From a virus, in IMG/VR virus record IMGVR_UViG_3300037095_000059: a DNA stretch of 64,000 nucleotides. The stretch is one strand, 5' to 3'. The position numbers and the translations under genes are program-made. A model generated the notes under the pieces. The model was not told the origin of the DNA. It did no database searches and was given only the letters and a program-made list of their open reading frames with translations. Within the stretch, counting starts at the first letter, position 1. Each line of letters begins with the position of its first letter. Positions 27,392-56,945 of the stretch are shown here, piece after piece.

Positions 27392-27516
27392 TACTTCTCT
27401 GCCTTCTTGTCCACTTTTCGGGCAACGAGTCGTCCATCAGGAAGTCGTAAAGCAATACCCACGTGTTTGGGAAGGGGCCGGAAATCGGGAAGAAATAGAA
27501 CGTAGTGCTCGTCCAT
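27391..27516 (-). CDS. micro-ORF, 41 aa
   Basis: TAATG overlaps at both ends. Called on coupling only. Confidence 0.3.
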   Translation of the reverse strand: MDEHYVLFLPDFRPLPKHVGIALRLPDGRLVARKVDKKAEK

Positions 27517-27608
27517 TAGTTGGGCTCCTTTATGTTGGCCCCAAAGGCCAGGTAGGTCAGAAACCCGAAGCAAGCCGCCAACCCGAGTATGGTTAGGAAG
27601 AGGAGCAT
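27516..27608 (-). CDS. micro-ORF, 30 aa, hydrophobic
   Basis: MLLFLTILGLAACFGFLTYLAFGANIKEPN; TAATG overlaps at both ends. Confidence 0.3.
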   Translation of the reverse strand: MLLFLTILGLAACFGFLTYLAFGANIKEPN

Positions 27609-27721
27609 TACTTTTTCTTCGGCTTCTTCTTGGTCTTCGGTCTGGGTTTGGTTCCGTAGTAGACAGCGGTCGTGCTGGGAAGTGCGGCGGACGTTACTGC
27701 TGAGGCGGGGCTGGCGGGCAT
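27608..27721 (-). CDS. micro-ORF, 37 aa, Lys-rich tail
   Basis: MPASPASAV...KPRPKTKKKPKKK. Overlaps its neighbours. Confidence 0.3.
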   Translation of the reverse strand: MPASPASAVTSAALPSTTAVYYGTKPRPKTKKKPKKK

Positions 27722-27861
27722 GTGGGCTCCAAAAGTTTTTCTGCTTCTTCGAGATATTCTTCGCACTGAGAACAAGTACAACCGCAATCTTCGTCGAGCC
27801 AAAGGTGGACAAGGAACCGAAATCTCTCGCAGGCTGACTTGTATTTTTCTAGGTCGGTCAT
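27694..27861 (-). CDS. Cys-rich small protein, 55 aa
   Basis: MTDLEKYKSACERFRF...CGCTCSQCEE. ATGA overlap with the GIY-YIG stop. Confidence 0.4.
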   Translation of the reverse strand: MTDLEKYKSACERFRFLVHLWLDEDCGCTCSQCEEYLEEAEKLLEPTCPPAPPQQ

Positions 27862-28664
27862 GGGGTCTCCACGTTCTTGACTCGAATTTCTTGTTCGGGG
27901 CCGAAGCCTACGCGGTTTGATAGCTGGTAGCCCAAAGCGACCGGGGGTTGCTGGAAGGAATCGAGAGGGAAAGTTGCTCTTCGGCGATCCCAAGCTCTCT
28001 CCATACTGGCTTTAATCTTAGCCTTGGTCTCTTCCGTCTGTTTTGTTCCCAGTTTGTGGTTTCCGGTGTGGTTCTTGGCGATGTTCGCTCGTCCTTCGGG
28101 AGTATGATGCTTTCCCGTATTAGCGGCGGACATGCGGGCCGCGTACTCGGGGTCTTTCCATCTTTCTTTGCATTTGTCCCCGATTAACTTCTTAATTTCA
28201 TCCGTGTGGGGTTGACCCAGGTCGTGGCGACCAAACATCGGGTTGCGCTCCCCGACTAAAAGACCTTTACGGGATTCTGAAGCTCGCTTCTTGTTCTCGG
28301 GGTTCTGCCACCACTCTTTGCTCTTCTTTGAAATCTTAACTTTGTTCTCTGGGAGGTGTCTACCAGCCCGACCACCCAACATTCTGTTATATCCAACAGA
28401 GGGGTCGGTGGCATTAAAATGAGCGATGTAGAAGGTTTCGAGTTCGTTGCCCTCTTCTCGACTGGGCGCCTCGTCTATTTTCTCAATAACGAAGGAGTCT
28501 TTTCCGTGGTCTCGAATTGCTTGGTGAAAATCTTGTGGGGCCTTCTTAACGAGGGCGTCGTACAAATGACGACTCCAACGCCTCCGCAGAATCTGTACCG
28601 TCTGCCCGACGTAGATAATACCGTTAGTCGAGTCTGTGACTTTGTAAATGCTTACTGTTTCCAT
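27858..28664 (-). CDS. GIY-YIG homing endonuclease (I-TevI-like, NUMOD3-type repeats)
   Basis: SIYKVTDSTNGIIYVGQT...RRWSRH...N is the GIY-YIG core. Repeated G..H(T/S)(P/E)E.(K/R).K(I/L) DNA-binding repeats follow. Confidence 0.85.
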   Translation of the reverse strand: METVSIYKVTDSTNGIIYVGQTVQILRRRWSRHLYDALVKKAPQDFHQAIRDHGKDSFVIEKIDEAPSREEGNELETFYIAHFNATDPSVGYNRMLGGRAGRHLPENKVKISKKSKEWWQNPENKKRASESRKGLLVGERNPMFGRHDLGQPHTDEIKKLIGDKCKERWKDPEYAARMSAANTGKHHTPEGRANIAKNHTGNHKLGTKQTEETKAKIKASMERAWDRRRATFPLDSFQQPPVALGYQLSNRVGFGPEQEIRVKNVETP

Positions 28665-28741
28665 TTTGTCCTCATCTTGCCATGAGGGTTTGGGGCCGAG
28701 GGCAAGCTCGACCCCTTACCGTCTGATTCGAATCTACTTGT

Positions 28742-28769
28742 ATTATACCACACTTTCATGCTTCTGCAA
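28742..28769 (-). promoter_or_regulatory. sigma70-like promoter upstream of the GIY-YIG gene
   Basis: Minus strand reads TTGCAG-16 nt-(TGg)TATAAT. The GTGTGGTA-TATAATA core is shared with the promoter at 31209..31237. Downstream hairpin CCTCAT-GGCAAG-ATGAGG covers the GAGGA RBS. Confidence 0.5.
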
Positions 28770-28824
28770 CAAGTATTTTCGAACTATTTTCGTCCTAGCT
28801 GGACGATGTCTGCGCCTGAATACG

Positions 28825-29039
28825 CTGTCTGTTACCCGTTTAGAATCAACGGACTGACTCATTTCTGGTCAGTTCATACGGTTTTCTTTCCCGTATGGTC
28901 GGACTATTGCATGTCCTTTCGGACCCACTTCGCTTAGTCTCTCAGCCTGCTTTCGCTTGGCCCTCCTTGGCATTTCAGCGTCGGAGTCAATCAGAAGGGG
29001 TTTATCCTGCGCCGTTGTGTTAACGCAGTGTCATTGTAG
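28825..29039 (-). mobile_element. group I intron-like core, copy A (approximate ends)
   Basis: Minus strand reads CACTGCGTTAACACAACGGCGCAGG...TTCTGATTGACTC...GCTGAAATGCCAA...GAGAGACTAAGCG...GCAATAGTCCGACC...GGTAACAGACAG. Clearly similar to copy B (not quantified) and carries the AGACTAA / ATAGTC core elements. Confidence 0.5.
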
Positions 29040-29049
29040 AACCCGGCGG

Positions 29050-29300
29050 CTCTGTTACCTCGTCCAGGTAATGGACGCGGGCAAGTCGTTTCTGTTCCGC
29101 TTGCCTCATACGGTTCGTTTCCCGTATGCCCAGACTGTTGCATACCCTTTCGGGTCTTCTTCGCTCAGTCGTTCACGGTCTCTTTCGAGTTCCGCCTCGT
29201 TGGCATTTCAGCGTTCGAGTCAATCAGAAGAAGTTTTACCTGCGCCGATGTTTTAACGCAGTGTGTTGGTGTAGCGAACGTTGTAGCTCACCCACGGAGA
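29050..29300 (-). mobile_element. group I intron-like core, copy B (approximate ends)
   Basis: Same architecture as copy A (..GACGCTGAAATGCCAA.., ..GCAACAGTCTGGGC.., ..GGTAACAGAG). Lies directly after the first in-frame stop of capsid exon 3. Confidence 0.5.
29062..29076. repeat. 15-bp motif copy
   Basis: GTCCAGGTAATGGAC; near the 3-prime end of intron-like copy B. Confidence 0.9.
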
Positions 29301-29304
29301 CTAC

Positions 29305-29489
29305 TTACATCAACTTTGTTGTCGGAGGCTGGGTTTGGTCACCACCGATTTGCCGAGCGGGGTCAGAACTGGAACCCTGCTCAGGTGCGCTCTGGATAAA
29401 CAGCTTGTAGTTCTTGCTGTTATCATTCGGGTTTTTGCCCAGGAAAACGCTGAAGATCGCGTCTTCACCGAAAATATAAGTGTTATAAA
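29305..29489 (-). CDS. major capsid protein, exon 3 (read to the first in-frame stop)
   Basis: (F)YNTYIFGEDAIFSVFLGKNPNDNSKNYKLFIQSAPEQGSSSDPARQIGG... is typical of HK97-fold capsid C-terminal regions. Whether further exons follow is unresolved. Confidence 0.5.
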
Positions 29490-29714
29490 CTCTCTGTTAA
29501 CTGCTGTGTTATCAGCAAGATACGTCATTTCTGCGTATCTCTCATACTTCATTTCGTATGAGAACGGACTATCGCATCGTCCATTACCTGGACGCCCCAT
29601 CGTTTAGTCTCTCACGGTCCCTTTCGGGTTCCGCCTTGTTGGCTTCTCAGCTTCCAAGTCGATTAGACGGGGTTCTCATTCGAGGGTTTCACCTCGATGA
29701 CGCCTACATTATTG
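29490..29714 (-). mobile_element. ORF-less group I intron C in the capsid gene
   Basis: Minus strand has P1 ACGT|...GCGT with U:G at the 5-prime splice site. Core elements GTCTAATCGAC, AAGGCGGAACC, GAGAGACTAAACG and GCGATAGTCCG, three terminal hairpins, and an end at ...CAGAGAG. Splicing joins ACG T + TT TAT in frame (..SGNT-F-YNTYIFG..). Confidence 0.65.
29579..29593. repeat. 15-bp motif copy
   Basis: GTCCATTACCTGGAC; inside intron C between the AGACTAAACG and GATAGTCC elements. Confidence 0.9.
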
Positions 29715-30293
29715 ACGTGTTGCCACTTATAGTCACGGTCGGAGCAGTTGTGGTTTGTTTGAACGTTACGCCAGCGAACGAGATAACATCCTCGTTCTTC
29801 GGCAGTTCAAACAGCATGGAACGCATGGAGTCGTCGCGCTTGATGATGTCGGACAATCCGTTGAAGGACGTGTCGTTCAGGATGTCGCGGACCACTGACG
29901 GGTGAATGATTCCGCCAAATTTGTTGTCCACGAGCGGACGTGCGTTCACGGCTACCAGGGACTGAGCGGCGGAACGAACGTTGTTGGCCGTCAGGTAGGA
30001 ACCGTTTGCGAGTTGAATGTTGACCAGGTTGTCAATCGCAACAGCCGAGTCAGCGGTAAGCTGGACAAGGGTGTTGAGGGTGAGGGCCAAGCGGTAGTTC
30101 AACTCATTTGCGAGATTCTGGAGTAGACCGGGGTCGTCGATTGCGACATCAAGTGCGAGGTCGCTAGAATTTATAAAATCGGCGTATTGCCCAATTGTGG
30201 CCAAAATCTTGTTGCTGGATTCAGAGATCGGACTTCCGACAGTGCCTTCTGCGGACTGGTTCAGGTTAGCGGAAAGCAGTGCGTAGGTGTAGA
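29715..30293 (-). CDS. major capsid protein, exon 2
   Basis: Frame is open from 30303. (F)YTYALLSANLNQSAEGTVGSPISESSNKILATIGQYADFINSSDLALDVAIDD... matches the usual capsid pattern (G.t..f..Y..l....l.EG..p......v.a....yG..). Track ORF 29704..30204 is the part after an internal TTG. Confidence 0.6.
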
Positions 30294-30303
30294 CTTTATG
30301 TGT

Positions 30304-31191
30304 TTAGGCCGTCAGCATCTCTGCTGGGGCGCTCTCGTCGTCGCCGACGAGAACAGGCTGTGTCTTCGGATTATTGAGAAAACGAATTGCATCGCACAAC
30401 TTCTTACGAAGCTCCCTATTTGGAGTTCTTGGAAGACGGACAAGCTCTAGAGCTATCTTGGCTTGCGGCCTCTTTGTTCTCAGGTAGGGTAGCACTTGGA
30501 GTAGAAAACTTTTGCGGTTCTCTTTTCCGGTGAGTTCCCAAGTGTAGAACTCTCTGGTGTTTCCTTTGGCTTCTTGCGTGTGAAACCACCCGCCGTACAA
30601 CCGCAGAAACAACTGGATAAGAGGGGCATAATTGTTGCCCATTCTAATTCGTAGCATCGGTTTACCGTCAGGAGTAAAAGCTGCTGATATGCAACCTTCG
30701 CCGTCCATGATTCCGGCCACGTATGCGTGCGTTAGTTTGTCTTCAACAAACCCGTCTAGCGTGTCAGTCGTTACGCATTCCCTGTTTTTCATCCCCCGGA
30801 TTTTGTCCATCAACTCTTTGCGTTTCGATGGGTTCTGCTGATCGCCGAGGTCGTAGAACTCCTGAAGTACCAGAGCCTCTTCCTTTTTGATTCGCAGATA
30901 CGGAAGGATATAAGAGAGAAATTGTGGGGCGGCATTCCTGCCGTTGATGTTCCACTGATACCAAACTTGGCCGCGTGCTGGCGTGTGCTTGGTGTAGAAG
31001 CCCCCAAAAGTTTCGACTAGCCCCTTTACCAGGGACAGTTCAACGCTGCTCATAACGATTCTAGGTTGGTAAGGAGTTGCTTTTCCGCCTTCTTTTACAG
31101 TCGGCTTGTATATCGAAAAGCACCCTTCCGCGTCCATCAAACCAGCGGCGTAGGCTTTTGTTCTTTCTCTCATAGGGTCTTTGCTCGGCAT
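30304..31191 (-). CDS. LAGLIDADG homing endonuclease (double motif)
   Basis: AAGLMDAEGCF and VAGIMDGEGCI motifs. Start taken at ATG 31191 after TTGGAGCAGACA. Has its own promoter upstream. Confidence 0.85.
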   Translation of the reverse strand: MPSKDPMRERTKAYAAGLMDAEGCFSIYKPTVKEGGKATPYQPRIVMSSVELSLVKGLVETFGGFYTKHTPARGQVWYQWNINGRNAAPQFLSYILPYLRIKKEEALVLQEFYDLGDQQNPSKRKELMDKIRGMKNRECVTTDTLDGFVEDKLTHAYVAGIMDGEGCISAAFTPDGKPMLRIRMGNNYAPLIQLFLRLYGGWFHTQEAKGNTREFYTWELTGKENRKSFLLQVLPYLRTKRPQAKIALELVRLPRTPNRELRKKLCDAIRFLNNPKTQPVLVGDDESAPAEMLTA

Positions 31192-31208
31192 TGTCTGCTC
31201 CAATTATT

Positions 31209-31237
31209 ATACTACCACACCGATAGTATTTTGTCAA
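31209..31237 (-). promoter_or_regulatory. sigma70-like promoter upstream of the LAGLIDADG gene
   Basis: Minus strand reads TTGACA-17 nt-(TGg)TAGTAT. Confidence 0.5.
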
Positions 31238-31283
31238 GCAGATTTTCACCGATTTAGCTAGATTTTAATTCAGCACCATAGAT

Positions 31284-31446
31284 ACTGAATCTGGTTGCCT
31301 TGGCGCAACGGCAGCGGACGCTGCTTGGTCATGCTAAGGAATGGAGTGTTTGCCTTCAGGTTAGGAATTGCTTCCCGCTCGTAGTGAATTGCTACCAAGT
31401 TGGGGAGAGCGCCCGAGGTGACTATACTGGCTGGTGAATAACTCAT
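31284..31446 (-). CDS. major capsid protein, exon 1
   Basis: ATG 31446 after AAAGGAGTAACTCAA. MSYSPASIVTSGALPNLVAIHYEREAIPNLKANTPFLSMTKQRPLPLRQGNQIQ. Unspliced, it stops after 58 codons, so it is absent from the track. Confidence 0.6.
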
Positions 31447-31464
31447 TTGAGTTACTCCTTTGTG

Positions 31465-32604
31465 TTAGATAGAGCGCCGACTTTTTGCAATGTGCATCTG
31501 AGTTGCCCGCCACAATGCTTGGTGGGCTTCGTCTGACATATTGTTTAAGTCCTCGGCTGAGGGCGCTGTGAGGGTCTCGGGCGGCGCGACGGGTGTTACG
31601 TCGTTTCTCCCAATTCCCAAAGCCGCTCTCGGGCGCGTCACCACTTGAACAATCCGTTCGTTGGGGCGCGGCGCAGGCAGTGCCGGTCCGTTTGACGGAA
31701 CCGCTACCGGCGGAGTGGGTTCGGCCTGTGGTTCAGGCGGAATTTGTCTTGACCTCGGGGCCGTGAGTAGCAATCCATCGCTGCTCAGGTCCGCAAAAGC
31801 CTCTTCAATGTTTGAAACTGTCCATTGTCCGGCGGAGTGAAGATCGAACATATTCGCGTCGGGTTTGCCGAGCTTGAACTTGCTCAGCCAGCGGACAATG
31901 AGGTTGAAATTCTTTCCCTCTCTGTCCGGGTAATAGTCGGGGTTCCTTCGAACAAACTCCTCGCCCACGGCCCCGGTTTCGAGGTTGGCGTCCGCGTTCG
32001 CTCCCTTTTGCGCCAAGGAGAACACTTCGTCCATTGTTACTCCCCGTGTCTTTTGCATCAGAGCATCGAAGGCAGCAGAGGGATCGGATTCCCACATGGT
32101 CTTGATCTCGAAGACTTCGTCCGCCGTCAGCTTCCGGGTAGTGGTCGCCATCTTTGGCGTGGCGGGCTGCGCGGGGGCGGGCGTTCCGAACTTCAGCTTC
32201 CCACTCAACTCCCGGATTTTCTTCGTGGCGTTCAGCTTGCCGGTCAGAACGTTAATCAGAAGCTCGTCTTTGTTCTTGCCCCAGAAGACCTCCGGTTTAG
32301 CGCCAGTGCCTGGGTCGAGCACAGCCTTCCACTGCCCTTTTTCCTTCGTGCGGGTAACGTAGGCCCCGTCTTCCAACTGAAAGACTTCCGGGCCTTCGGG
32401 CTCGGGCTCCACTACGGGAACAACGATCTCTGGTTCCGGCTGAGGATAGTTTGTAACTATCTCCGGAGTGATTAAGGGGTGCTCGTCCAAAAGGTCGGGG
32501 TTGATCTCGTCCAAGTGGGTTGCGCTAAAATCAACGTTGTTGAAAGGGTCGGGGGTGCCGTCTGAATTGAGGGCCCAGGGATCAATTACTGGTTGGTTTG
32601 CCAT
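31465..32604 (-). CDS. scaffolding-protein candidate, 379 aa
   Basis: Track ORF. Acidic and Pro-rich, immediately upstream of the capsid gene. Assigned by position only. Confidence 0.5.
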   Translation of the reverse strand: MANQPVIDPWALNSDGTPDPFNNVDFSATHLDEINPDLLDEHPLITPEIVTNYPQPEPEIVVPVVEPEPEGPEVFQLEDGAYVTRTKEKGQWKAVLDPGTGAKPEVFWGKNKDELLINVLTGKLNATKKIRELSGKLKFGTPAPAQPATPKMATTTRKLTADEVFEIKTMWESDPSAAFDALMQKTRGVTMDEVFSLAQKGANADANLETGAVGEEFVRRNPDYYPDREGKNFNLIVRWLSKFKLGKPDANMFDLHSAGQWTVSNIEEAFADLSSDGLLLTAPRSRQIPPEPQAEPTPPVAVPSNGPALPAPRPNERIVQVVTRPRAALGIGRNDVTPVAPPETLTAPSAEDLNNMSDEAHQALWRATQMHIAKSRRSI

Positions 32605-45034: not shown

Positions 45035-45116
45035 TGGAGCGGAAGACGGGATTCGAACCCGCATGTCAAAGACAGTTGCTTGGAAGGCAACGGCTCTACC
45101 ACTGAGCGACTTCCGC
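45035..45116 (-). tRNA. tRNA, anticodon UCC (Gly) with an unusual 12-nt extra arm
   Basis: Acceptor GCGGAAG/CTTCCGC, T-arm GCGGG-TTCGAAT-CCCGT, anticodon arm GTTGC-CTTCCAA-GCAAC, CCA encoded. Confidence 0.7.
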
Positions 45117-45203
45117 ATGAAACTTGGTAGGCGACTGTGGAATCTAACCACAATGACACCCCTATCGAGGGTGCGTCCTAACATTGGACGAGTCGCCCGT
45201 AAA

Positions 45204-45279
45204 TGGTGTGGTCGGCAGGACTCGAACCTGCGGTGAACTGGGTGTAGGCCAGCCGATTTAGCCGCTAATCTACGACCAC
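45204..45279 (-). tRNA. tRNA-Val (UAC)
   Basis: Acceptor GTGGTCG/CGACCAC, T-arm GCAGG-TTCGAGT-CCTGC, loop CCTACAC, CCA encoded. Confidence 0.8.
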
Positions 45280-45284
45280 AGAAA

Positions 45285-45359
45285 TGGGGCGCGTAGCCGG
45301 AATCGAGCCGACATTCTGACCTTCGGAGGGTCGAGTTCTGTCCGTTGAACTATACGCGC
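45285..45359 (-). tRNA. tRNA-Arg (CCG)
   Basis: Acceptor GCGCGTA/TACGCGC, T-loop CTCGATT, anticodon loop CTCCGAA. Confidence 0.75.
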
Positions 45360-45363
45360 AAAC

Positions 45364-45439
45364 TGGAACCGACCACGGGACTTCAACCCGCATCAACTTC
45401 GTTAGGACCGAAGGGCTCTGTGCATTGAGCTAAGTCGGC
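45364..45439 (-). tRNA. tRNA-Arg (CCU)
   Basis: Acceptor GCCGACT/GGTCGGT, T-arm GCGGG-TTGAAGT-CCCGT, loop GTCCTAA. Confidence 0.75.
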
Positions 45440-45443
45440 GAAA

Positions 45444-45518
45444 TGGAAACCCCATCCGGAGTCAAACCGGAATCTAACGAATAGAAGCCGTTGCTCTCTT
45501 CCCTTGAGCTATGGGGTC
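45444..45518 (-). tRNA. tRNA-Arg (UCU)
   Basis: Acceptor GACCCCA/TGGGGTT, T-arm TCCGG-TTTGACT-CCGGA, loop CTTCTAT. Confidence 0.7.
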
Positions 45519-45524
45519 AAAATT

Positions 45525-45600
45525 TGGTGCCTCGCCAGGGAATTGAACCCTGTCCAATCGGCTTAAAAGGCCGTTATGCCAGCCATCACACTCACGAGGC
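45525..45600 (-). tRNA. tRNA-Lys (UUU)
   Basis: Acceptor GCCTCGT/GCGAGGC, T-arm CAGGG-TTCAATT-CCCTG, loop CTTTTAA. Confidence 0.75.
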
Positions 45601-45648
45601 AACGTTTGTCGTCCTCGGATTTTCGACTTGTCATAACGTCCTCCAAAA

Positions 45649-45725
45649 TGGTGGGTCGCCAGGAACTCGAATCCTGCTCTGTCGGGTAAGAACCGACTGC
45701 TTCAAACCATCAAAGCTTGCAACCC
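45649..45725 (-). tRNA. tRNA-Lys (CUU)
   Basis: Acceptor GGGTTGC/GCGACCC, T-arm CAGGA-TTCGAGT-TCCTG, arm GTCGG-TTCTTAC-CCGAC. Confidence 0.8.
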
Positions 45726-45726
45726 G

Positions 45727-45820
45727 TGGTAGGCGACCAGGGGGTCGAACCCTGCCGTTGCGCTATTCGAGGCGCTCTCCCGGGGATATAAAGCCCAGCC
45801 GCACACCGATGCTATCGCCC
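45727..45820 (-). tRNA. class II (long-arm) tRNA, anticodon not assignable by eye
   Basis: 94 nt. Acceptor GGGCGAT/GTCGCCT, T-arm CAGGG-TTCGACC-CCCTG, long extra arm GCGC-CTCGAATA-GCGC. The anticodon region GGGC-TTTATAT-CCCC can be registered as UAU or UUA. Confidence 0.6.
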
Positions 45821-46186
45821 AAAACTTTTGTCCATTAACCGGACAATATCCTTCTTCAACTGTGCAACCTTCGCGGGCGGCATGTACAACTCGCCCTTCT
45901 TGACCAAGGCTATTCCTCCCTTTTTCACCGTGCCGCCTTTGTGAAAAGTAGCGGGAGACGCTTTGCTAAAATTGGGAGTCGGCAGGCTCGGGGTGTAGCT
46001 GGGGCCCGGGGCTTGCCTTGTATTCGCTTGTAGATCGTCTGTTGTTGCTGCGCGAGCAGCGGCGTTCTTGGCTTCAGCGGCCTGCATAGCAGAGCCCACG
46101 GCCCCGACGGCGGACCCTACTTTCTGCTTAGTGGTCTGCGGTGTTTTGGAGTCCGGTTTGTCGGTGCCTACCATTGCGTTTGCCAC
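45812..46186 (-). CDS. hypothetical protein, 124 aa
   Basis: Track ORF. The 3-prime end overlaps the tRNA by 9 nt and contains a motif copy (..VRLMD..). Confidence 0.5.
   Translation of the reverse strand: MANAMVGTDKPDSKTPQTTKQKVGSAVGAVGSAMQAAEAKNAAARAATTDDLQANTRQAPGPSYTPSLPTPNFSKASPATFHKGGTVKKGGIALVKKGELYMPPAKVAQLKKDIVRLMDKSFGR
45830..45844. repeat. 15-bp motif copy
   Basis: GTCCATTAACCGGAC; near the C-terminus of the 124-aa CDS. Confidence 0.9.
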
Positions 46187-46326
46187 GTATTCTCCTTGTG
46201 TTGTCTTGGTGCCGCACGAGCTAATCGAAAGCTAACTCCGAAGTCCTTATGAGAGACTCGTCCAACCTTTGGTGCGCGGCTTACGCAAACTGCGTACATT
46301 TGTACTCAAAACGAGTACATTCAAAA

Positions 46327-46401
46327 TGGCAGGAGATGTAGGATTTTAACCTACAAGTTCCGTTTTGGAGACGGACAGTTTGACATTGAGCTTAATCTCC
46401 C
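46327..46401 (-). tRNA. tRNA-Trp (CCA)
   Basis: Acceptor GGGAGAT/ATCTCCT, T-arm GTAGG-TTAAAAT-CCTAC, arm TCCGT-CTCCAAA-ACGGA. Confidence 0.8.
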
Positions 46402-46408
46402 GTAAAAC

Positions 46409-46483
46409 TGGTGCCCGGTAGAGGAGTCTAACCTCTGTCTCGAAGTTCGTAGCTTCGTGTCTTATACGTTATACGAACCGGAC
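46409..46483 (-). tRNA. tRNA-Arg (ACG)
   Basis: Acceptor GTCCGGT/ACCGGGC, T-arm AGAGG-TTAGACT-CCTCT, arm CGAAG-CTACGAA-CTTCG. Confidence 0.8.
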
Positions 46484-46554
46484 TCAGCGCGAATCGAATC
46501 GAACGATTTCCACGAGCATCCGAGGCTCGGAGGCGACCACTACCCCACGCACTG
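46484..46554 (-). tRNA. tRNA-Pro (CGG)
   Basis: Acceptor CAGTGCG/CGCGCTG (C1:G72, A73), T-arm AATCG-TTCGATT-CGATT, arm CGAGC-CTCGGAT-GCTCG. CCA not encoded. Confidence 0.75.
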
Positions 46555-46561
46555 CTTAATA

Positions 46562-46637
46562 TGGTCAGCGGGCCGGGCTCCGCTTCCGGGACACGTGCTT
46601 CCGGAGCACGGAGGTTACTAGGCTACACTACCCACTG
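46562..46637 (-). tRNA. tRNA-Pro-like (CGG), atypical T-loop
   Basis: Acceptor CAGTGGG/CCCGCTG, arm CGTGC-TCCGGAA-GCACG, T-loop AGCGGAG, C at position 33. Confidence 0.55.
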
Positions 46638-46643
46638 ATAAAT

Positions 46644-46717
46644 TGGTCTGGGAGGGGAATTATGCTATCCCGACACAAGCTTCCAGAGCTTGGATGTTTC
46701 TTCTACACTACTCCCAG
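46644..46717 (-). tRNA. tRNA-Pro (UGG), atypical T-loop
   Basis: Acceptor CTGGGAG/CTCCCAG, arm CAAGC-TCTGGAA-GCTTG. The T-arm is irregular. Confidence 0.6.
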
Positions 46718-46718
46718 G

Positions 46719-46795
46719 TGGTCAGGGCGGTGGGAAATCGAACCCACTCCACAAGTCTCCCAGACTTGGATGCACAACCTCTACACTACACCCTG
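46719..46795 (-). tRNA. tRNA-Pro (GGG)
   Basis: Acceptor CAGGGTG/CGCCCTG, arm CAAGT-CTGGGAG-ACTTG, T-arm GTGGG-TTCGATTT-CCCAC. Confidence 0.7.
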
Positions 46796-46803
46796 ATAAA
46801 ACA

Positions 46804-46881
46804 TGGTGCGGATTCAGCGAATCGAACGCTGTTCTTTCGCTCTTCAGGCGAACGCTAAATCACCAGACTAGCTCAATCCGC
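46804..46881 (-). tRNA. tRNA-Phe (GAA)
   Basis: Acceptor GCGGATT/AATCCGC, T-arm CAGCG-TTCGATT-CGCTG, arm TTCGC-CTGAAGA-GCGAA. Confidence 0.85.
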
Positions 46882-47049
46882 AAAACTGTGCGTGGTCTCT
46901 CCCCGCCGTCACTCCACTCAGCCCCAGGCGATCAACGGGAGACTGCTGCCGCAGGTGTCGCGGTTCTCAGCTTTGGTGGACCAGGAGGGGCTTGATTCCT
47001 CGCGCAGACGCTTGCATCCATCTGAAAGTACTGGCCCATTGTTAAACCA

Positions 47050-47274
47050 CTACCAAATATCCCATGCCACAGTCTTTTTCACAGCAGGCATTTCTTTCTC
47101 CTGCGCGACTGCTGCCGTTGCAGCACGTCGATACTTGCGATTCCTGATCTTTGCCCAGGATTTACGCCCCGGCCATGCTCCACCATAAGCGCCAGGATAA
47201 CCACAGAGTTTGCGCCACGCCTCACGAGTCGCTTCCTGTATCTTCCAAGGCATCGTGTTAATCGTTCGGGACAC
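47050..47274 (-). CDS. small basic protein, 74 aa, inside the tRNA array
   Basis: Track ORF. GTG start 6 nt after GAGGAG. Confidence 0.45.
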   Translation of the reverse strand: MSRTINTMPWKIQEATREAWRKLCGYPGAYGGAWPGRKSWAKIRNRKYRRAATAAVAQEKEMPAVKKTVAWDIW

Positions 47275-47347
47275 AACTTACTCCTCAAACTTGGTGGAGC
47301 CTGTTGTCAGCCACCGGATCGCGCCCGGCCCCATGATGGTTTACATT

Positions 47348-47422
47348 TGGTGGAAAAGAGGAGAATCGAACTCCTACCTACTGGGTGCAGACCAGTCGTG
47401 CTCCCATTACCACTACTTCCCC
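47348..47422 (-). tRNA. tRNA-Ala (UGC)
   Basis: Acceptor GGGGAAG/CTTTTCC with G3:U70, T-arm AGGAG-TTCGATT-CTCCT, arm ACTGG-TCTGCAC-CCAGT. Confidence 0.75.
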
Positions 47423-47597
47423 ACATTTCAAACTTACGCCGAGGTCCTACCTTAGATGATGGTGCGGAACTCACCGCATATTCCAGGGAGAGTCGAACTC
47501 CCGTTTCTCGGCGCTTCTCGCCAGACGCTTTACCCAAAGCTACTAGGTGGTTTTACCCGGGCCTAGTCCGGACTCGAACCGGATTCTTCTGGCTGCT

Positions 47598-47673
47598 TGG
47601 AGGGAAGGGGACGAGTTGAACGTCCTAGAGAGTGGATTCACAGACCACCGCCGCACCGTTTGGCTTCCGACCC
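47598..47673 (-). tRNA. tRNA-His-like (GUG)
   Basis: T-arm GGACG-TTCAACT-CGTCC, arm GTGGT-CTGTGAA-TCCAC, CCA encoded. The acceptor GGGTCGG/CCTTCCC has two internal mismatches. Confidence 0.55.
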
Positions 47674-47781
47674 AAAATTTTCCGAGCTTTAGGCTGATCT
47701 GCTGGCCAGCTAAAGGGCTAGGCCCACGATCAACTTTTCACTGCACCCTATTTCTAGGGGGTACCCGGTGTAGGACTTGTT

Positions 47782-47796
47782 GTCCATTACCTGGAC
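47782..47796. repeat. 15-bp motif copy
   Basis: GTCCATTACCTGGAC; tRNA-array spacer. Confidence 0.9.
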
Positions 47797-47880
47797 GAAT
47801 CTTGAAGCAAGGTTTACTCTGAAACCCGGCAGAAAAGTCAGACCACTTCGTTTGGTAGAACCAGGCAGGTGTCGCCTGTG

Positions 47881-47955
47881 TGGAGCGCCCGGACAGATTC
47901 AAACTGCCTTCTCCCGGGTACAGGCCGGGCGAATCTTCTGGTATTCTTCAGGCGC
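47881..47955 (-). tRNA. tRNA-Thr (UGU)
   Basis: Acceptor GCGCCTG/CGGGCGC, arm CCCGG-CCTGTAC-CCGGG, T-loop TTTGAAT. Confidence 0.75.
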
Positions 47956-48024
47956 AAATCTCAACTAAAGACATTGTACCACAGCAGTCTTCAGCTTGTC
48001 AACAACTATTTCAGAAAAACTTTG

Positions 48025-48098
48025 TGGAGCCGACGAGGGGAGTTCAACCCCTATTTCTGACGTACCAGGTCAGCGTTGTAGCGTTGAACCACATCGGC
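48025..48098 (-). tRNA. tRNA-Thr (GGU)
   Basis: Acceptor GCCGATG/CGTCGGC, T-arm AGGGG-TTGAACT-CCCCT, arm CTGAC-CTGGTAC-GTCAG. Confidence 0.8.
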
Positions 48099-48099
48099 T

Positions 48100-48173
48100 T
48101 GGAGCCCGGTCGGGGAATTCAACCCCGGTCTTCGCGGTACGAAGGCGAAAGTCTAGCACTGACCTAACCAGGC
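48100..48173 (-). tRNA. tRNA-Thr (CGU)
   Basis: Acceptor GCCTGGT/ACCGGGC, T-arm CGGGG-TTGAATT-CCCCG, loop TTCGTAC. Confidence 0.75.
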
Positions 48174-48176
48174 GTT

Positions 48177-48191
48177 GTCCATTATCTGGAC
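48177..48191. repeat. 15-bp motif copy
   Basis: GTCCATTATCTGGAC; 3 nt from the tRNA-Thr 5-prime end. Confidence 0.9.
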
Positions 48192-48375
48192 GAAACATTG
48201 CCGCTTGAGGGCCGGATGCTTCCCCGGCTTTTACGAACCGCGTGGTAGGGCGGCCAACCTCGGAGTGCGCATCTCCTGCGGCAAACTAATCGCGCCGTTC
48301 CGACCTGCTTAGACCTTCCATAGAAGGCGAGGTTTGCAACCCTCGACAGGCACCTTTCTGGATACTGCGCGAACT

Positions 48376-48450
48376 TGGAGCGAAGGACCAGACTCGAACT
48401 GGCGTCTACGGACTGGCAATCCGAGGTACTAGCCGCTGTACGACCTTCGC
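48376..48450 (-). tRNA. tRNA-Gly (GCC)
   Basis: Acceptor GCGAAGG/CCTTCGC, T-arm GCCAG-TTCGAGT-CTGGT, loop TTGCCAG. Confidence 0.8.
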
Positions 48451-48455
48451 AAAAA

Positions 48456-48530
48456 TGGCAGGGGGTACTGGAATTGAACCAGTCTTCAGGGCTTCAAAGA
48501 CCCTTACCTAAACCAATCGGTCAACCCCCT
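48456..48530 (-). tRNA. tRNA-Gln (UUG)
   Basis: Acceptor AGGGGGT/ACCCCCT, T-arm ACTGG-TTCAATT-CCAGT, arm AGGGT-CTTTGAA-GCCCT. Confidence 0.8.
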
Positions 48531-48535
48531 AAACT

Positions 48536-48609
48536 TGGCTCGGGCAGATGGAATCCAACCACCGCCATTCGGGTCAGAGCCGAATGTCCTAGCACTAAAC
48601 GATGCCCGA
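48536..48609 (-). tRNA. tRNA-Gln (CUG)
   Basis: Acceptor TCGGGCA/TGCCCGA, arm TTCGG-CTCTGAC-CCGAA, T-loop TTGGATT. Confidence 0.75.
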
Positions 48610-48617
48610 TTAAATTT

Positions 48618-48693
48618 TGGCTCACCCGGAGGGCCACGATCCCCCAACCTCTCGGTTAACAGCCGAGCGTTCTGCCAATTGAACTACAGGTGA
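48618..48693 (-). tRNA. tRNA-Asn (GUU)
   Basis: Acceptor TCACCTG/CGGGTGA, arm CTCGG-CTGTTAA-CCGAG. T-loop ATCGTGG is atypical. Confidence 0.7.
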
Positions 48694-48703
48694 ACATTAA
48701 ACT

Positions 48704-48780
48704 TGGTAGGGTTGATGGAGCTTGCATCCATTAGGGCCTGCGTGAAGGGCAGGGTGCTCGACTACTTTGCATTCAACCCC
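48704..48780 (-). tRNA. tRNA-Glu (UUC)
   Basis: Acceptor GGGGTTG/CAACCCT, arm CCTGC-CCTTCAC-GCAGG, T-arm ATGGA-TGCAAGC-TCCAT (atypical loop). Confidence 0.7.
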
Positions 48781-48788
48781 AAAACTAA

Positions 48789-48866
48789 AACGGATGGTGG
48801 CCCTACACTTCTTACGCCACTGTCGATGAGGCTTAACTTCCCCTCGTTGCCGAGTGTTGCATCCGT
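48789..48866 (-). ncRNA. tRNA-sized element with a perfect acceptor-like stem but a non-canonical interior
   Basis: ACGGATG...CATCCGT (7 bp) encloses 64 nt. I could not draw standard D, anticodon or T arms. Confidence 0.35.
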
Positions 48867-48872
48867 TTAACT

Positions 48873-48946
48873 TGGCGGCCTACCAGGGAGTCAAACCCTG
48901 ATCGTGAGGATGAGGACCTCACATCCTGTCGTTAGAAGAGTAGGCC
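48873..48946 (-). tRNA. tRNA-Glu (CUC)
   Basis: Acceptor GGCCTAC/GTAGGCC, T-arm CAGGG-TTTGACT-CCCTG, arm TGAGG-TCCTCAT-CCTCA. Confidence 0.8.
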
Positions 48947-49220
48947 AAAACATGGCCGACTTACATCCCGAAGGAAAGCGGCAAAACTTTGCCGGTCTTT
49001 CCCGGCGGTCAGGAGTAGCACTAATCGAGCCTTCTTAACCACGCTCGGGTGGAACCATCAAGGTGAGGGGTTGCCCACGGTTTCCAAACCGTCTCGTTAC
49101 TGGACTTCGCTGTGCTCACCACAGCCGCCCTATCCGAGTAGCGCGGAAGAAGGGTGCTCAATTAGCTCCTTGAGACGGAGGGGAGCCTGTACAAGCCTAC
49201 CGGCGGGTACAACATCAAAA

Positions 49221-49299
49221 TGGCGCGAGCGAGGGGACTCGAACCCCCGAATAAATCCTCATGGACAGTGAGGTGCAGTTGCCGCTGTGCTACGCCCGC
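49221..49299 (-). tRNA. tRNA-Asp (GUC)
   Basis: Acceptor GCGGGCG/CGCTCGC, T-arm GGGGG-TTCGAGT-CCCCT, arm CCTCA-CTGTCCA-TGAGG. Confidence 0.8.
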
Positions 49300-49460
49300 G
49301 TAAGATTGTACTCCAGATTATAAGAGATGAATTTTATCACATCTCCCGCTGCCGGGGTATTAAGTCCATTGTCTGGATGAAGTTCGCAGTATTTGTCCCA
49401 CGCAGTCTTGTGCGGACATGGTCTGCTGTAATAATTAGAAATACATTCTTCCAGATTCAT
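49290..49460 (-). CDS. small protein, 56 aa, inside the tRNA array
   Basis: Not in the track. ATG 49460 after GAGGAAGC. MNLEECISNYYSRPCPHKTAWDKYCELHPDNGL...; the stop overlaps the tRNA-Asp 5-prime end. Confidence 0.4.
   Translation of the reverse strand: MNLEECISNYYSRPCPHKTAWDKYCELHPDNGLNTPAAGDVIKFISYNLEYNLTRA
49364..49378. repeat. 15-bp motif, degenerate copy
   Basis: GTCCATTGTCTGGAT; encodes HPDNG in the 56-aa ORF. Confidence 0.5.
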
Positions 49461-49472
49461 GCTTCCTCAAAT

Positions 49473-49549
49473 TGGTTCAGGGAGGGCGATTCGAACGCCG
49501 CTATTCATTCGAGCTTATGAGGCTGAATGCCACACCAACGGGCCCCTGT
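49473..49549 (-). tRNA. tRNA with CAU anticodon (Met/fMet/Ile2 type)
   Basis: T-arm GGCG-TTCGAAT-CGCC, anticodon loop CTCATAA, acceptor ACAGGGG/TCCCTGA with a 1:72 mismatch. The D arm is irregular. Confidence 0.55.
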
Positions 49550-49570
49550 ATAAACATTATACCACAAAAC

Positions 49571-49661
49571 TGGTGCAAGCAGAGGGATTCGAACCCCCAA
49601 TGTCATCAAAGATAATCCAGATTTACAGTCTGGCGCACCCAACCGTATGTGCCTTACTTGC
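49571..49661 (-). tRNA. tRNA-Tyr (GUA), class II
   Basis: 91 nt. Acceptor GCAAGTA/TGCTTGC, arm CCAGA-CTGTAAA-TCTGG, T-arm GGGGG-TTCGAAT-CCCTC. Confidence 0.85.
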
Positions 49662-49662
49662 G

Positions 49663-49747
49663 TGGAGGAGAGCAGCCGAATCGAACGGCCATCCTTGCGG
49701 AGCCCCGGTTTTCAAGACCGGCTGTATCACCATCAACAGTGCTCTCC
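49663..49747 (-). tRNA. tRNA-Ser (UGA), class II
   Basis: 85 nt. Acceptor GGAGAGC/GCTCTCC, arm CCGGT-CTTGAAA-ACCGG, T-arm GGCCG-TTCGATT-CGGCT. Confidence 0.85.
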
Positions 49748-49993
49748 AAAACTTACCGCAATCCCTGCGGCCTCACTTTCTGAGCGGTTCAGAGGAAGTG
49801 TGTTCAGTAACCCCGAATCCAGGGTGAGCCTTACAGACCGCTAGCGGTACAACGTCAAAACTTAACTCCCCGACTTCTACGCGACACCTTGCTGAGCTTG
49901 TCAGGGCCAGCCGGGCTCGGGGAACCGGGTCATATTCCAACCCTTTGACAAGGGAATAAGGAACAGGGGACGACCGGCGGCACACGTCAAACA

Positions 49994-50080
49994 TGGCGGA
50001 AGATGAAGTATCGAAACCTTGTCCATTATCTGGACAGCACCGGGTTCGAGCCGGTTTGGGCACCTTGCCCGCCATCTTCC
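49994..50080 (-). tRNA. tRNA-Ser (CGA), class II, extra arm formed by the 15-bp motif
   Basis: 87 nt. Acceptor GGAAGAT/ATCTTCC, arm ACCGG-CTCGAAC-CCGGT, extra arm GTCC-AGATAAT-GGAC. The T-stem is weak. Confidence 0.65.
50021..50035. repeat. 15-bp motif copy
   Basis: GTCCATTATCTGGAC; forms the variable arm of tRNA-Ser(CGA). Confidence 0.9.
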
Positions 50081-50085
50081 TAAAA

Positions 50086-50171
50086 TGGCGGAAAGTACAG
50101 AACTCGAATCTGAATCCTTGCGGATCGCACCGCTTTCCAAGCGGGCCCAGGCCCTGCCCGGTCTACTTTCC
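50086..50171 (-). tRNA. tRNA-Ser (GGA), class II
   Basis: 86 nt. Acceptor GGAAAGT/ACTTTCC, loop TTGGAAA, T-arm TCAGA-TTCGAGT-TCTGT. Confidence 0.8.
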
Positions 50172-50217
50172 ATTAAGGAAAAACTACCTACTTTTTCTTG
50201 CACAAAACTTGACAAAA

Positions 50218-50305
50218 TGGCGGAAGAGGGGAGACTCGAACTCCCAATACCCGAAGGTATCGCTGCCTTAGCAGAGCAGTGCAGTACCAATTGTGCCACT
50301 CTTCC
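50218..50305 (-). tRNA. tRNA-Ser (GCU), class II
   Basis: 88 nt. Acceptor GGAAGAG/CTCTTCC, arm CTGCT-CTGCTAA-GGCAG, T-arm GGGAG-TTCGAGT-CTCCC. Confidence 0.85.
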
Positions 50306-50310
50306 AAACT

Positions 50311-50393
50311 TGGTGCCGATGAGGGGGATCGAACCCCTACCCCGAAGGACTAGGTTTTGAATCTAGCGTGGCTCCCAATTACACCACATCGGC
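50311..50393 (-). tRNA. tRNA-Leu (CAA), class II
   Basis: 83 nt. Acceptor GCCGATG/CATCGGC, loop TTCAAAA, T-arm AGGGG-TTCGATC-CCCCT. Confidence 0.8.
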
Positions 50394-50397
50394 AAAG

Positions 50398-50568
50398 CTA
50401 CTCTTCGTCACACCCGACGTACTCAGACAAAGCGTCGGCAGCCTCGACGTAAGCCCGGCGAAGTTTGTGAAACTCTTCGTCCTTGACTTCGGAAAAATCA
50501 CTGTAATTCCGGAAGGCATAATCGAAGCCTTCGTTCTCGACGCAAGCTGCAACTTCCCAGAGCTTCAT
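50398..50568 (-). CDS. small acidic protein, 56 aa, inside the tRNA array
   Basis: Track ORF 50398..50700 overlaps two tRNAs, so it was trimmed to ATG 50568 after AGGAGGAAAG. Confidence 0.5.
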   Translation of the reverse strand: MKLWEVAACVENEGFDYAFRNYSDFSEVKDEEFHKLRRAYVEAADALSEYVGCDEE

Positions 50569-50583
50569 CTTTCCTCCTAATCT

Positions 50584-50669
50584 TGGTGCGGTTGAAGAGA
50601 GTCGAACTCTTACGCTTGTTACGGCGTCTGGTTCTGAGCCAGGTGCGTCTGCCATTCCGCCACAACCGC
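50584..50669 (-). tRNA. tRNA-Leu (CAG), class II
   Basis: 86 nt. Acceptor GCGGTTG/CAACCGC, loop CTCAGAA, T-arm AAGAG-TTCGACT-CTCTT. Confidence 0.8.
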
Positions 50670-50670
50670 G

Positions 50671-50747
50671 TGGTGCCGTCGAGCGGATTCGAACCGCCAC
50701 TCAATATCTTCTCAGAATATCCCCTCTGCCAATTGGGGTACGACGGC
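50671..50747 (-). tRNA. tRNA with GAG (Leu) anticodon but class I shape
   Basis: 77 nt. Acceptor GCCGTCG/CGACGGC, T-arm GGCGG-TTCGAAT-CCGCT, arm ATATT-CTGAGAA-GATAT. The variable region is only 5 nt. Confidence 0.65.
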
Positions 50748-56866: not shown

Positions 56867-56945
56867 AATCGCAGAGTGAGGCACGGCGCAGCGTGCCTTT
56901 AATGCGGCGGTATCGTTTCAAGCCGATACGCATAGAAAGGGAGCT

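Follow-up and report, generated by a model that had tools for sequence, protein, structure and literature searches.

The 64,000-nucleotide (nt) stretch of viral DNA analysed here, IMG/VR record IMGVR_UViG_3300037095_000059 (hereafter the window, meaning the whole stretch), carries on its minus strand, at 31446-28795, a split major capsid gene in which 327 codons and a stop are distributed over six exons by five inserts. Four of these inserts are very probably group I introns whose removal restores the capsid open reading frame (ORF), and the fifth, a 46-nt insert between exons 3 and 4 which has no catalytic core, is the locus's most unusual feature. It is likely that this short insert is removed at the RNA level, by cleavage after U29341 and after G29295, through group I chemistry, and the overall reading that seems best, held with slightly more conviction than doubt, is that it belongs to a set of core-deleted, non-autonomous introns which are spliced by a neighbouring ribozyme. 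The original prediction that the capsid gene is broken by group I introns was right in its core claim, but the fragmentation exceeds what it described, since there are four introns and a mini-intron, and the 46-nt insert was missing from it altogether.

The exon map was obtained with an author-written protein-to-DNA spliced aligner which permits introns in all three phases, using the uninterrupted homologue P0001 as the query, and one-base ambiguities at the junctions were settled in favour of placements in which the insert follows a U and ends in a G (referred to below as the U...G rule). The joined exons, of 163, 579, 149, 39, 24 and 30 nt, sum to 984 nt without a frame error and are colinear with residues 1-327 of P0001, and the five inserts measure 990, 225, 46, 209 and 198 nt. 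Reading along the minus strand, a ribosome-binding site AAAGGAG (31461-31455) is followed by exon 1 (31446-31284), which encodes MSYSP...GNQIQ and the first base of a Phe codon, by intron 1 (31283-30294), a probable group I intron with a LAGLIDADG gene, by exon 2 (30293-29715), by the ORF-less group I intron 2 (29714-29490), and by exon 3 (29489-29341), which ends in ...SSSDPARQIGG. The mini-intron (29340-29295) separates exon 3 from micro-exon 4 (29294-29256), whose product WVSYNVRYTNTLR is identical to residues 298-310 of P0001; then come intron A (29255-29047), micro-exon 5 (29046-29023, PGSTMTLR), intron B (29022-28825), which like A is an ORF-less group I intron, and exon 6 (28824-28795), which consists of 27 nt and a stop (RIQAQTSSS). 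The limits of exons 1 and 2 and the start of exon 3 agree with those predicted originally when the pieces are reread and translated, and the two junctions proposed at that time, Q-F-Y at residue 55 and T-F/Y-Y at residue 248, are recovered as the same joins by spliced alignment with P0001. Homologues run uninterrupted across both: the exon 1/exon 2 join NQIQFYTYALL is continuous in P0001 and P0006, the exon 2/exon 3 join GNTFYNTYIF is continuous in P0077, and uninterrupted homologues of 327-329 amino acids (aa) cross the two junctions without a break.

Intron A had been placed immediately behind the first in-frame stop of exon 3, but exon 3 ends at 29341, the stop in question lies within the 46-nt insert, and exon 4 comes before A. 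Two options had accordingly been offered for A and B, either that further short exons exist or that these copies are non-coding passengers; exons 4, 5 and 6 have now been located, and the second option falls away. The C-terminus of full-length homologues reads ...ARQIGG-WVSYNVRYTNTLR-PGSTMTLR-RLQSETSSS, and the window holds all three of the segments that follow ARQIGG, in different frames. Removing A and B according to the U...G rule gives ...NTLR-PGSTMTLR-RIQAQTSSS and a stop, which matches the intron-less homologues. Exons 4-6 encode 30 residues, 28 of which are the same as in P0001, and both differences fall within the C-terminal RIQAQ/RLQSE stretch. A and B are thus true introns, flanked by micro-exons of 39 and 24 nt. 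All five intervening sequences must leave the messenger RNA (mRNA) if the 327-aa protein is to be made; splicing of each of these RNAs is a prediction from the exon/intron map, the covariation and the guide pairing, all of which were computed, and the predicted junctions join AUCGGUGGU to UGGGUGAGC, CACUGCGU to CCGGGUUC, CACUGCGU to CGUAUUCAG, AUUCAGU to UCUACACC and AACACGU to UUUAUAAC. The sequence P0140/L087 was considered as a complementary DNA of this lineage and rejected: it is the closest full-length match but only 87-95% identical in DNA, and it was classed as an intron-less relative.

The identification of the host gene as a major capsid protein is well supported. The conceptual protein of exons 1, 2 and 3 finds 278 homologues, for the most part proteins of 327-329 aa without interruption, and the best of them, itself uninterrupted, matches the whole query (100%) at 91% identity; many homologues with 70-97% identity carry the JGI label "N4-gp56 family major capsid protein"; the closest cultured relative, at 39% identity, is the major head protein of the Tunturiibacter (Acidobacteriota) phage Tunturi_3. 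Membership of the N4-gp56 family is probable, with the model TIGR04387 (N4-gp56 capsid) scoring 41.7 bits against the spliced protein, under its 60-bit cut-off. The matches to HK97-fold structures are weak: an AlphaFold model made from a 43-sequence alignment has a predicted local distance difference test score of only 49, because that alignment does not hold enough diversity, and the top Foldseek matches of this poor model are nearly all HK97-fold capsids or encapsulins, including that of phage N4, with E values of about 1e-3 and template modelling scores of about 0.3. No Pfam match was found for the spliced protein, no PDB sequence match was found with the capsid profile, and a DNA comparison with GenBank phages gave no match. 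A portal and an adaptor of SU10 type lie in synteny with the gene, which supports a head module; the phage is a soil-type tailed phage in which the capsid gene lies in the head module with an SU10-like portal.

The 46-nt insert has the anatomy of a group I substrate. It is preceded by U29341 and its last base is G29295. Its guide, ACCCA followed directly by GCCUCCGA (29334-29322), pairs with UGGGU at the start of the 3' exon (P10) and with UCGGUGGU at the end of the 5' exon (P1), where 7 of 8 pairs form with a U.G pair at the splice site; the P1 hairpin is present in both the minimum free energy and the centroid folds. Exon 4 supplies GCUAC as the partner of a tail element, GUAGU (within 29306-29299). 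The insert contains an in-frame stop, UAA, at 29307-29305, and its removal restores Trp298, which is invariant in all 43 uninterrupted homologues; W298, Y301, N302, T306, P311, G312 and R318, all of them downstream of the mini-intron, are invariant in the family. Neither of the core elements R and S is present in the insert, which gives no match to the covariance model of the full-size introns (R1, described below) and has no room for a core. Because it lacks a core of its own (P3-P8 and the guanosine site), it is not filed as an autonomous group I ribozyme. Two other ways of accounting for the insert were tried and rejected. The incoming reading frame ends at the UAA at 29307-29305 and the outgoing frame opens only after the UAG at 29303-29301, so that the frames of exons 3 and 4 do not overlap and frameshifting cannot bridge them; and the guide of intron A, GCGCAG, has no complementarity to the end of exon 3, so that the mini-intron must use its own guide.

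The family-wide pattern was obtained by running the spliced aligner on 80 IMG/VR contigs and on further contigs reached via truncated proteins; apparent inserts at contig edges or in divergent stretches (L057 at residues 12 and 20, L002 at residue 55, L085 at residue 291) and the loci L095 and L098 were discarded as aligner artefacts. The mini-intron of the window is not an error: it turns up again, differing by a single substitution, in an independent ENA contig, L002, although the two exons 2 share only 89% identity, and the JGI contig L097 is identical to the window across 2.7 kb. Other relatives have inserts of 38-59 nt and unrelated sequence at the same place, many of which split the Trp codon after its first base (U-GG). 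In all, 27 distinct mini-inserts of 32-59 nt were found in related phage contigs, at residues 30, 32, 40, 186, 297-299, 309 and 310, and the U...G rule can be satisfied by every one of the 27. Each holds one contiguous stretch whose P1 part can pair with the final 6-10 nt of the 5' exon, placing a G opposite the splice-site U, and which continues, immediately 5' of this part, with complementarity to the opening 3-9 nt of the 3' exon; a stretch of this kind, able to pair with both exons, is what group I introns have as their P1/P10 internal guide. The junction-anchored P10 and P1 complementarity beats that of shuffled sequences in most single cases, with a Fisher combined p of 2e-33, and a third helix, between the tail of the mini-intron and nt 7-13 of the 3' exon, also beats shuffles (combined p of 1e-5). 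The guides covary with synonymous changes in the exons (GGUGGAU/GUCCACC, GGUGGCU/GGCCACC and GGAGGGU/GCCCUCC; GGGUAA/UUACCC and GGGUCA/UGACCC), as does the tail helix (UGUAGC/GCUACA against UGUAAC/GUUACA, and ACAACGA/UCGUUGU against AACGACG/CGUCGUU).

The assignment of the full-size introns to group I was evaluated on an alignment (A2) of 35 related introns, including intron 2, A and B, in which ten helices were tested: P1, P3-P9, P9.1 and P9.2. These occur in the order P1, P3, P4-P5-P6, P7, P3', P8, P7', P9, P9.1, P9.2, with P7 pseudoknotted with P3. Over the 54 pairs of the ten helices, 89.9% of the alignment cells are paired, compared to 35-39% when the partners are slid; compensatory changes are found in 47 of the 54, and none of 500 shuffles does as well. 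P3, P4, P6, P7 and P9 are each 99-100% paired, and P9.2, with 45% of its cells paired, has no support. Within P7, all 35 sequences have G-C at alignment columns 130/172, beside a base at column 129 that is unpaired, and the adjoining pair covaries (27 G-C, 8 A-U); by analogy, the invariant pair would be the guanosine-binding site. The splice-site pair is U.G in 26 of the 35 sequences, the remainder being mis-aligned P1 extensions, and in the window the base before each of inserts 1, 2, A and B is a U that pairs with G in P1, while the last base of each is a G. The covariance model R1, built from the 35 introns, finds exactly intron 2 (178.5 bits), A (182.9 bits) and B (197.3 bits) in the 64-kb window and nothing else, all three being members of its training set. 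A and B are real and related, as had been seen by eye; a second structural subtype in the relatives is picked up by R1 at lower scores. On this evidence intron 2, A and B are predicted to be self-splicing group I introns.

The elements of these three introns are as follows. In intron 2, the 5' exon end ACGU faces a GCGU guide (GGCGU within 29707-29696), R is GAGAGACUAAACG (29613-29601), S is GCGAUAGUCCG (29575-29565), and the 3' end is ...GAGAG. A and B each follow ACACTGCGU and both carry the guide GCGCAG. Intron A has a P1 formed by CUGCGU and GCGCAG, with the guide within 29246-29233, R GAACGACUGAGCG (29174-29162), S GCAACAGUCUG (29141-29131), and a 3' end GGUAACAGAGCCG (29059-29047) that closes with ...GCCG; its P7 shows compensatory exchanges of G-C for A-U and of A-U for G-C. 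In intron B the guide lies within 29013-29000, R at 28943-28931 and S at 28910-28900, and the 3' end is GGUAACAGACAG (28836-28825), closing with ...ACAG.

How the mini-introns arose is indicated by sites at which different relatives carry either a full or a mini form. This is the case at sites 32, 40, 186 and 310, where the 5' ends of the two forms are homologous, a likeness that extends to the 3' ends at sites 186 and 310; the mini of L063 at site 310, for example, runs from GCGCAG to GGUAAUCCG, and intron A runs from GCGCAG to GGUAACAGAGCCG. The homologous ends imply that the minis are derivatives of ordinary introns by internal deletion, and that they arose from both structural subtypes. 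A further regularity concerns their surroundings. All 22 minis with enough downstream sequence have a full-size intron behind them, 16-52 nt away in 21 cases and 152 nt away in one; the other 5 of the 27 lie near a contig end, and there the contig still includes the opening bases of the next intron. A scan of JGI metagenomes for inserts of 30-60 nt at site 298 yielded 13 true capsid loci and no counter-example. Among the full-size introns, 37 of 100 have no downstream insert, and of the other 63 only 15 have one within 55 nt.

These observations suggest a mechanism in which the mini-intron would be a core-deleted group I derivative that retains only its P1 and P10 guide and its terminal G, together with a GUAA-like 3' motif and a short pairing to the exon downstream. 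Its pre-formed substrate helix would dock into the core of intron A, 39 nt downstream on the same transcript, and that core would perform both of the usual transesterifications on the mini-intron; alternatively, free intron RNA might serve it in trans. The association with a neighbour could reflect survivorship, if loss of the core is tolerated only where a neighbouring core still processes the intron, and the restriction of the minis to upstream positions would be explained if the helper must stay attached, so that the mini-intron is made and folded before the core of the helper takes shape. We would give about even chances to the proposition that the core of the neighbouring intron is the catalyst. 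The wider proposal, that there is a class of non-autonomous phage mini-introns of 32-59 nt which consist of a guide, a 3'-exon clamp and a terminal G and whose core is supplied by a downstream intron, is made tentatively and falls a little short of even chances. No report of such mini elements in phages or in protein-coding genes was found in the literature searched, although such an absence is not proof.

Several points weigh against this interpretation. As far as we are aware, no group I core is known to process, in nature, a second substrate helix that brings its own guide. The spacing between mini-intron and helper ranges from 16 to 152 nt, with no fixed geometry, and the association in 27 of 27 cases overstates the number of independent events because the contigs are related by descent; the constant upstream position of the minis could, moreover, stem from a deletion process at the DNA level rather than from functional dependence. 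In the window itself, the P1 helix of the mini-intron contains a U-U mismatch, its guide is not significant in its own shuffle test (p of about 0.36), so that only the family-wide pattern is, and the fold of the end of exon 3, the mini-intron and exon 4 is no stabler than that of shuffles (z = 0.14). The exact spliced exon 3/exon 4 junction of this lineage was not found in the scanned JGI metagenome contigs. Finally, the check with the Rfam group I model RF00028 that the original prediction recommended failed: the whole window, scanned at the gathering score, has no group I match, nor does the region 27500-32000 when the limit is relaxed to E <= 10; with the Rfam model silent, the group I assignment rests on covariation, and whole group I subgroups are missing from the Rfam seed (PMC11878797).

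If the mini-intron were simply retained, then the gene would be damaged or the capsid truncated at ...QIGGDQTQPPTTKLM, and exons 4-6, A and B would be remnants or assembly artefacts. Gene callers do give this truncated product in the relatives P0077 and P0139, and the exact spliced 327-aa protein is absent from a collection of 15 billion proteins. Against this stand the conservation of 28 of the 30 residues of exons 4-6 relative to P0001, the invariance in the family of seven residues downstream of the insert (W298 to R318), the presence of the same architecture in ENA L002, in JGI L097 and in IMG/VR contigs of 92-105 kb, and the covariation of guides with exon changes over 27 distinct minis, which requires selection on the pairing; retention is thus extremely unlikely. 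Scarcely more credible is the proposal that the ribosome skips the insert by programmed translational bypassing, with the P1-like hairpin as the take-off stem-loop. Bypassing has precedents in T4 gene 60, with its 50-nt bypassed gap, and in the "byps" of Magnusiomyces mitochondria, and the present insert is of nearly the gene 60 size, has in-frame stops and has a hairpin that takes in the last codons before the gap. The take-off codon would be GGU, however, whereas CCG precedes the point of resumption, the only downstream GGU lands out of frame (ELQRSLH...), and the take-off codon is followed in the window by GAC and not by a stop. The lack of matching take-off and landing codons excludes bypassing for the window, and it is excluded for the class because a hop cannot rebuild the Trp codon that is split U-GG in many relatives, and because the U...G rule and the U.G wobble found in 27 of 27 minis serve no role in bypassing.

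The remaining alternatives accept that the insert leaves the RNA and differ as to the agent. The mini-intron might splice alone, or with only guanosine and Mg2+, in which case the neighbouring full-size introns would be a historical by-product. There is a model for such autonomy in the 67-nt PaSSU intron of Phialophora, whose splicing in vitro is cited in a study of putative group I introns of 63-75 nt with P1, P7, P10 and an intron:3'-exon helix (PMC3160393), and P1, P10 and this last helix are common to the phage minis and the small fungal introns; but the phage minis have no room for P7 and a guanosine site, since only about 20 nt follow the guide and much of this is paired with the 3' exon, and autonomous minis would be expected to occur alone or downstream of other introns, which is seen in 0 of 27. 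Autonomous splicing is on these grounds unlikely. The same degree of doubt attaches to removal by proteins, whether by a phage or host endoribonuclease and an RNA ligase, with the guide as a splint, or by a dedicated splicing factor. Degenerate group I introns in lichen ribosomal DNA (rDNA) do not self-splice and yet are removed in vivo, which has been read as a sign of dedicated machinery (PMC8527467), and the P1 and P10 pairings of the guide would form a nicked duplex fit for a ligase; on the other side, no RNA ligase or candidate nuclease is found among the 10 large ORFs of the window that were scanned, the strict U.G at the 5' site and the terminal G are specific to group I chemistry, and the constant full-size intron downstream is left unexplained. 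Autonomous splicing and removal by proteins both keep a low probability, and neither accounts for the obligatory downstream intron.

Intron 1 belongs with the other full-size introns of the window to one related family, and differs from them in that it carries a gene. Its P1 is formed by AUUCAGU (31290-31284) with GCUGAAU (31274-31268) and its P3 by UCUAGC (within 31262-31249) with GCUAGA, a perfect helix of 6 bp; the R element is AACGACUGACACGCUAGA (30772-30755), with a 13/14 match to an intron of L084, and the S/P7' region is GAAGACACAGCCUG (30367-30354). The first 100 nt and the last 75 nt are homologous to an ORF-less intron of 228 nt at the same site in L084. The core of intron 1 is interrupted by segments of the ORF, there is an A.C mismatch in P7, and R1 gives no match to it. 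The ORF, from the ATG at 31191 to 30304, had been recognised originally as a LAGLIDADG gene with its own promoter, and both attributes are supported, by a LAGLIDADG_1 match of 34.7 bits (cut-off 23.1; E = 3.5e-8) and by a sigma-70-like promoter match at 10 of 12 positions (31237-31209). This two-domain ORF is threaded through the ribozyme, across regions that correspond to the P6 and P8 loops, so that the core elements P7(5')-P3' (AACGACUGACACGCUAGA) encode the stretch that links its two halves, and its C-terminus overlaps J8/7-P7'-P9. The ORF-less relative, L084_55_228, has a promoter remnant, TTGACG...TATGAT, in its P5 loop.

The capsid family as a whole is a hot-spot for insertion: about 35 sites hold 124 non-redundant inserts between them, and a single gene can have as many as nine. 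The U...G rule fits 93 of the 100 non-redundant full-size inserts, and a single similarity cluster accounts for 66 of the 70 ORF-less inserts of 185-240 nt. The most fragmented gene is that of L084 (IMGVR_UViG_3300032893_000735, a contig of 105.8 kb), in which positions 1059-4682 hold nine inserts, eight of them full-size and one mini. In the window, A and B occupy look-alike sites (29264-29233 and 29031-29000) which share the exon end and the guide: the nonamer ACACUGCGU is the 5' exon end of both and reflects repeated ...TLR codons (NTLR, MTLR). Intron 2 (region 29723-29696) is nearly the same intron as that at site 293 in L068, L075 and L077, and the 5' exon ends are alike, AACACGU at site 248 and GCACGU at site 293, with guides that match accordingly. 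The presence of related introns at look-alike sites fits a guide-directed spread, which may resemble reverse splicing.

Directly after the capsid stop lies a free-standing GIY-YIG/NUMOD3 gene (region 28769-27858, ORF 28664-27858, minus strand), with Pfam scores of 38.1 bits for GIY-YIG (cut-off 22.6; E = 1.9e-9) and 22.9 bits for NUMOD3 (cut-off 20.4), and with a promoter-like TTGCAG-N16-TATAAT at 28769-28742. The block that extends from the mini-intron through exon 4, A, exon 5, B and exon 6 to this gene (27858-29340 in the window, 824-1861 in L002) is 97-100% identical between the two contigs, compared to 89% for exon 2, and this mosaic identity suggests a recent transfer of the mini-intron, the ORF-less introns and the endonuclease gene as one cassette. 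The GIY-YIG endonuclease probably drives the cassette, with the ORF-less introns spreading by co-conversion, in analogy to T4 mobE, which is responsible for the trans-homing of the defunct I-TevIII intron (PMC2790892).

When the upstream frame is read through into the inserts, with extensions of at least 2 aa, the products end in ...AA before the stop in 20 of 82 cases, at 10 sites and with varied codons, and in ...VA in 12 of 82; in the other two frames, AA ends occur in 0 of 75 and 0 of 79. Examples are QIGGYQLAA, FLNSGDLAA and KLYSSRKAA, and such ends are found in L004, L012, L081, L084, L071, L076, L068, L042, L080, L067, L079 and others, and in none of the five inserts of the window. Their resemblance to an ssrA-type degron on truncated capsid protein from unspliced mRNA suggests a form of quality control, as far as can be judged from the predicted peptides. 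Elsewhere in the window, 45038-51037 (minus strand) holds about 24 transfer RNA genes and a two-piece (permuted) transfer-messenger RNA gene, placed by Rfam at 50819-51005 (94 bits) and by ARAGORN at 50728-51037, with the tag peptide AVPFELPMAA before its stop. A match to the type-P5 twister ribozyme (42 bits, gathering score 37.6) is located at 56870-56927 on the plus strand, 19 nt upstream of the ORF at 56946-57587.

An essential late gene of 984 nt with five inserts and micro-exons of 24-39 nt indicates the extent to which introns can colonise a phage gene. Rfam overlooks this entire intron family, and gene callers split or truncate the capsid gene, so that the introns have led to systematic mis-annotation of the capsid family. 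Many "capsid" database proteins of 236-302 aa are exon runs that end inside introns (for example ...QIGGEQTQPPTTKLM); P0002, P0006, P0015, P0027, P0034, P0042, P0077, P0079, P0080 and P0089 are such entries. If the proposed helper relationship is true, it would be the first natural case of a group I ribozyme that serves a second, core-less intron, an RNA counterpart of the parasitism of miniature inverted-repeat transposable elements (MITEs), and a natural model of trans- or cis-helper ribozyme action, which has hitherto been engineered only. Group I catalysis would then be shareable between introns in nature, introns could be reduced to a few dozen bases with no fatal effect on the gene that hosts them, and short unexplained frame-breaking inserts beside introns elsewhere would deserve re-examination. 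The system is compact, with about 350 nt spanning mini-intron, micro-exon and helper, which makes a test in vitro feasible.

Phage genes with group I introns include Twort orf142, which has three, T4 td, nrdB and nrdD, the SPO1 DNA polymerase gene and the capsid gene of Tuc2009, and a capsid gene is likewise interrupted by a group I intron in mycobacteriophage LittleE (PMC3706429). The full-size introns described here share with these known examples the U/G in P1, the terminal G, the P3-P9 core with its P3/P7 pseudoknot, the optional LAGLIDADG or GIY-YIG gene, and insertion into a highly expressed essential gene. They differ in their density, with five interruptions per 984 nt (and nine at most in relatives) and with micro-exons of 39 and 24 nt, in their dispersal over about 35 sites in one gene family, in escaping detection by Rfam RF00028, and in their small size (about 190-240 nt), with P1 mostly joined straight to P3, without P2.

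For the mini-introns, one point of comparison is provided by T4 gene 60, a phage gene that is likewise broken by a non-coding gap of about 50 nt, which contains stops and has a hairpin where it begins on the 5' side; unlike the T4 case, the capsid inserts have no matched codons, and they have U...G junctions, a guide for two exons and a split Trp codon that is restorable at the RNA level only. The small introns of fungal small-subunit rDNA (Phialophora PaSSU, 63-75 nt; Porpidia and Arthonia, 56-81 nt), of which those in the range 56-81 nt are described as degenerate group I introns with P1, P10 and intron:3'-exon pairing (PMC3160393), are another, in that both groups are tens of nt long, have P1 and P10, pair with the 3' exon and have lost most of the core. 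The phage minis, in contrast, are 32-59 nt long, lack P7, and occur at several sites in a bacteriophage protein-coding gene. The fungal introns are also reported to self-splice, whereas the phage minis are always near a downstream full-size group I intron, and this constancy points to a helper.

Trans excision-splicing ribozymes are engineered group I reactions with separated parts. In these and in the Azoarcus ribozyme, which uses a guide sequence given in trans (PMC2709566), a core works on a helix that is not its attached P1, and the flanks of a short internal segment are joined once this segment, which ends in G, has been cut out, as proposed here. Unlike those laboratory constructs, the present system would be natural, and the guide lies inside the excised segment itself. 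Another parallel exists among reduced genetic elements, such as the group III introns of Euglena plastids, which are reduced group II introns. In these, in MITEs and in the I-TevIII/mobE pair (PMC2790892), a deleted derivative keeps its recognition ends and relies on a complete element nearby, as the mini-introns would; but the function borrowed by the mini-introns would be RNA catalysis, and not a transposase, a maturase or an endonuclease.

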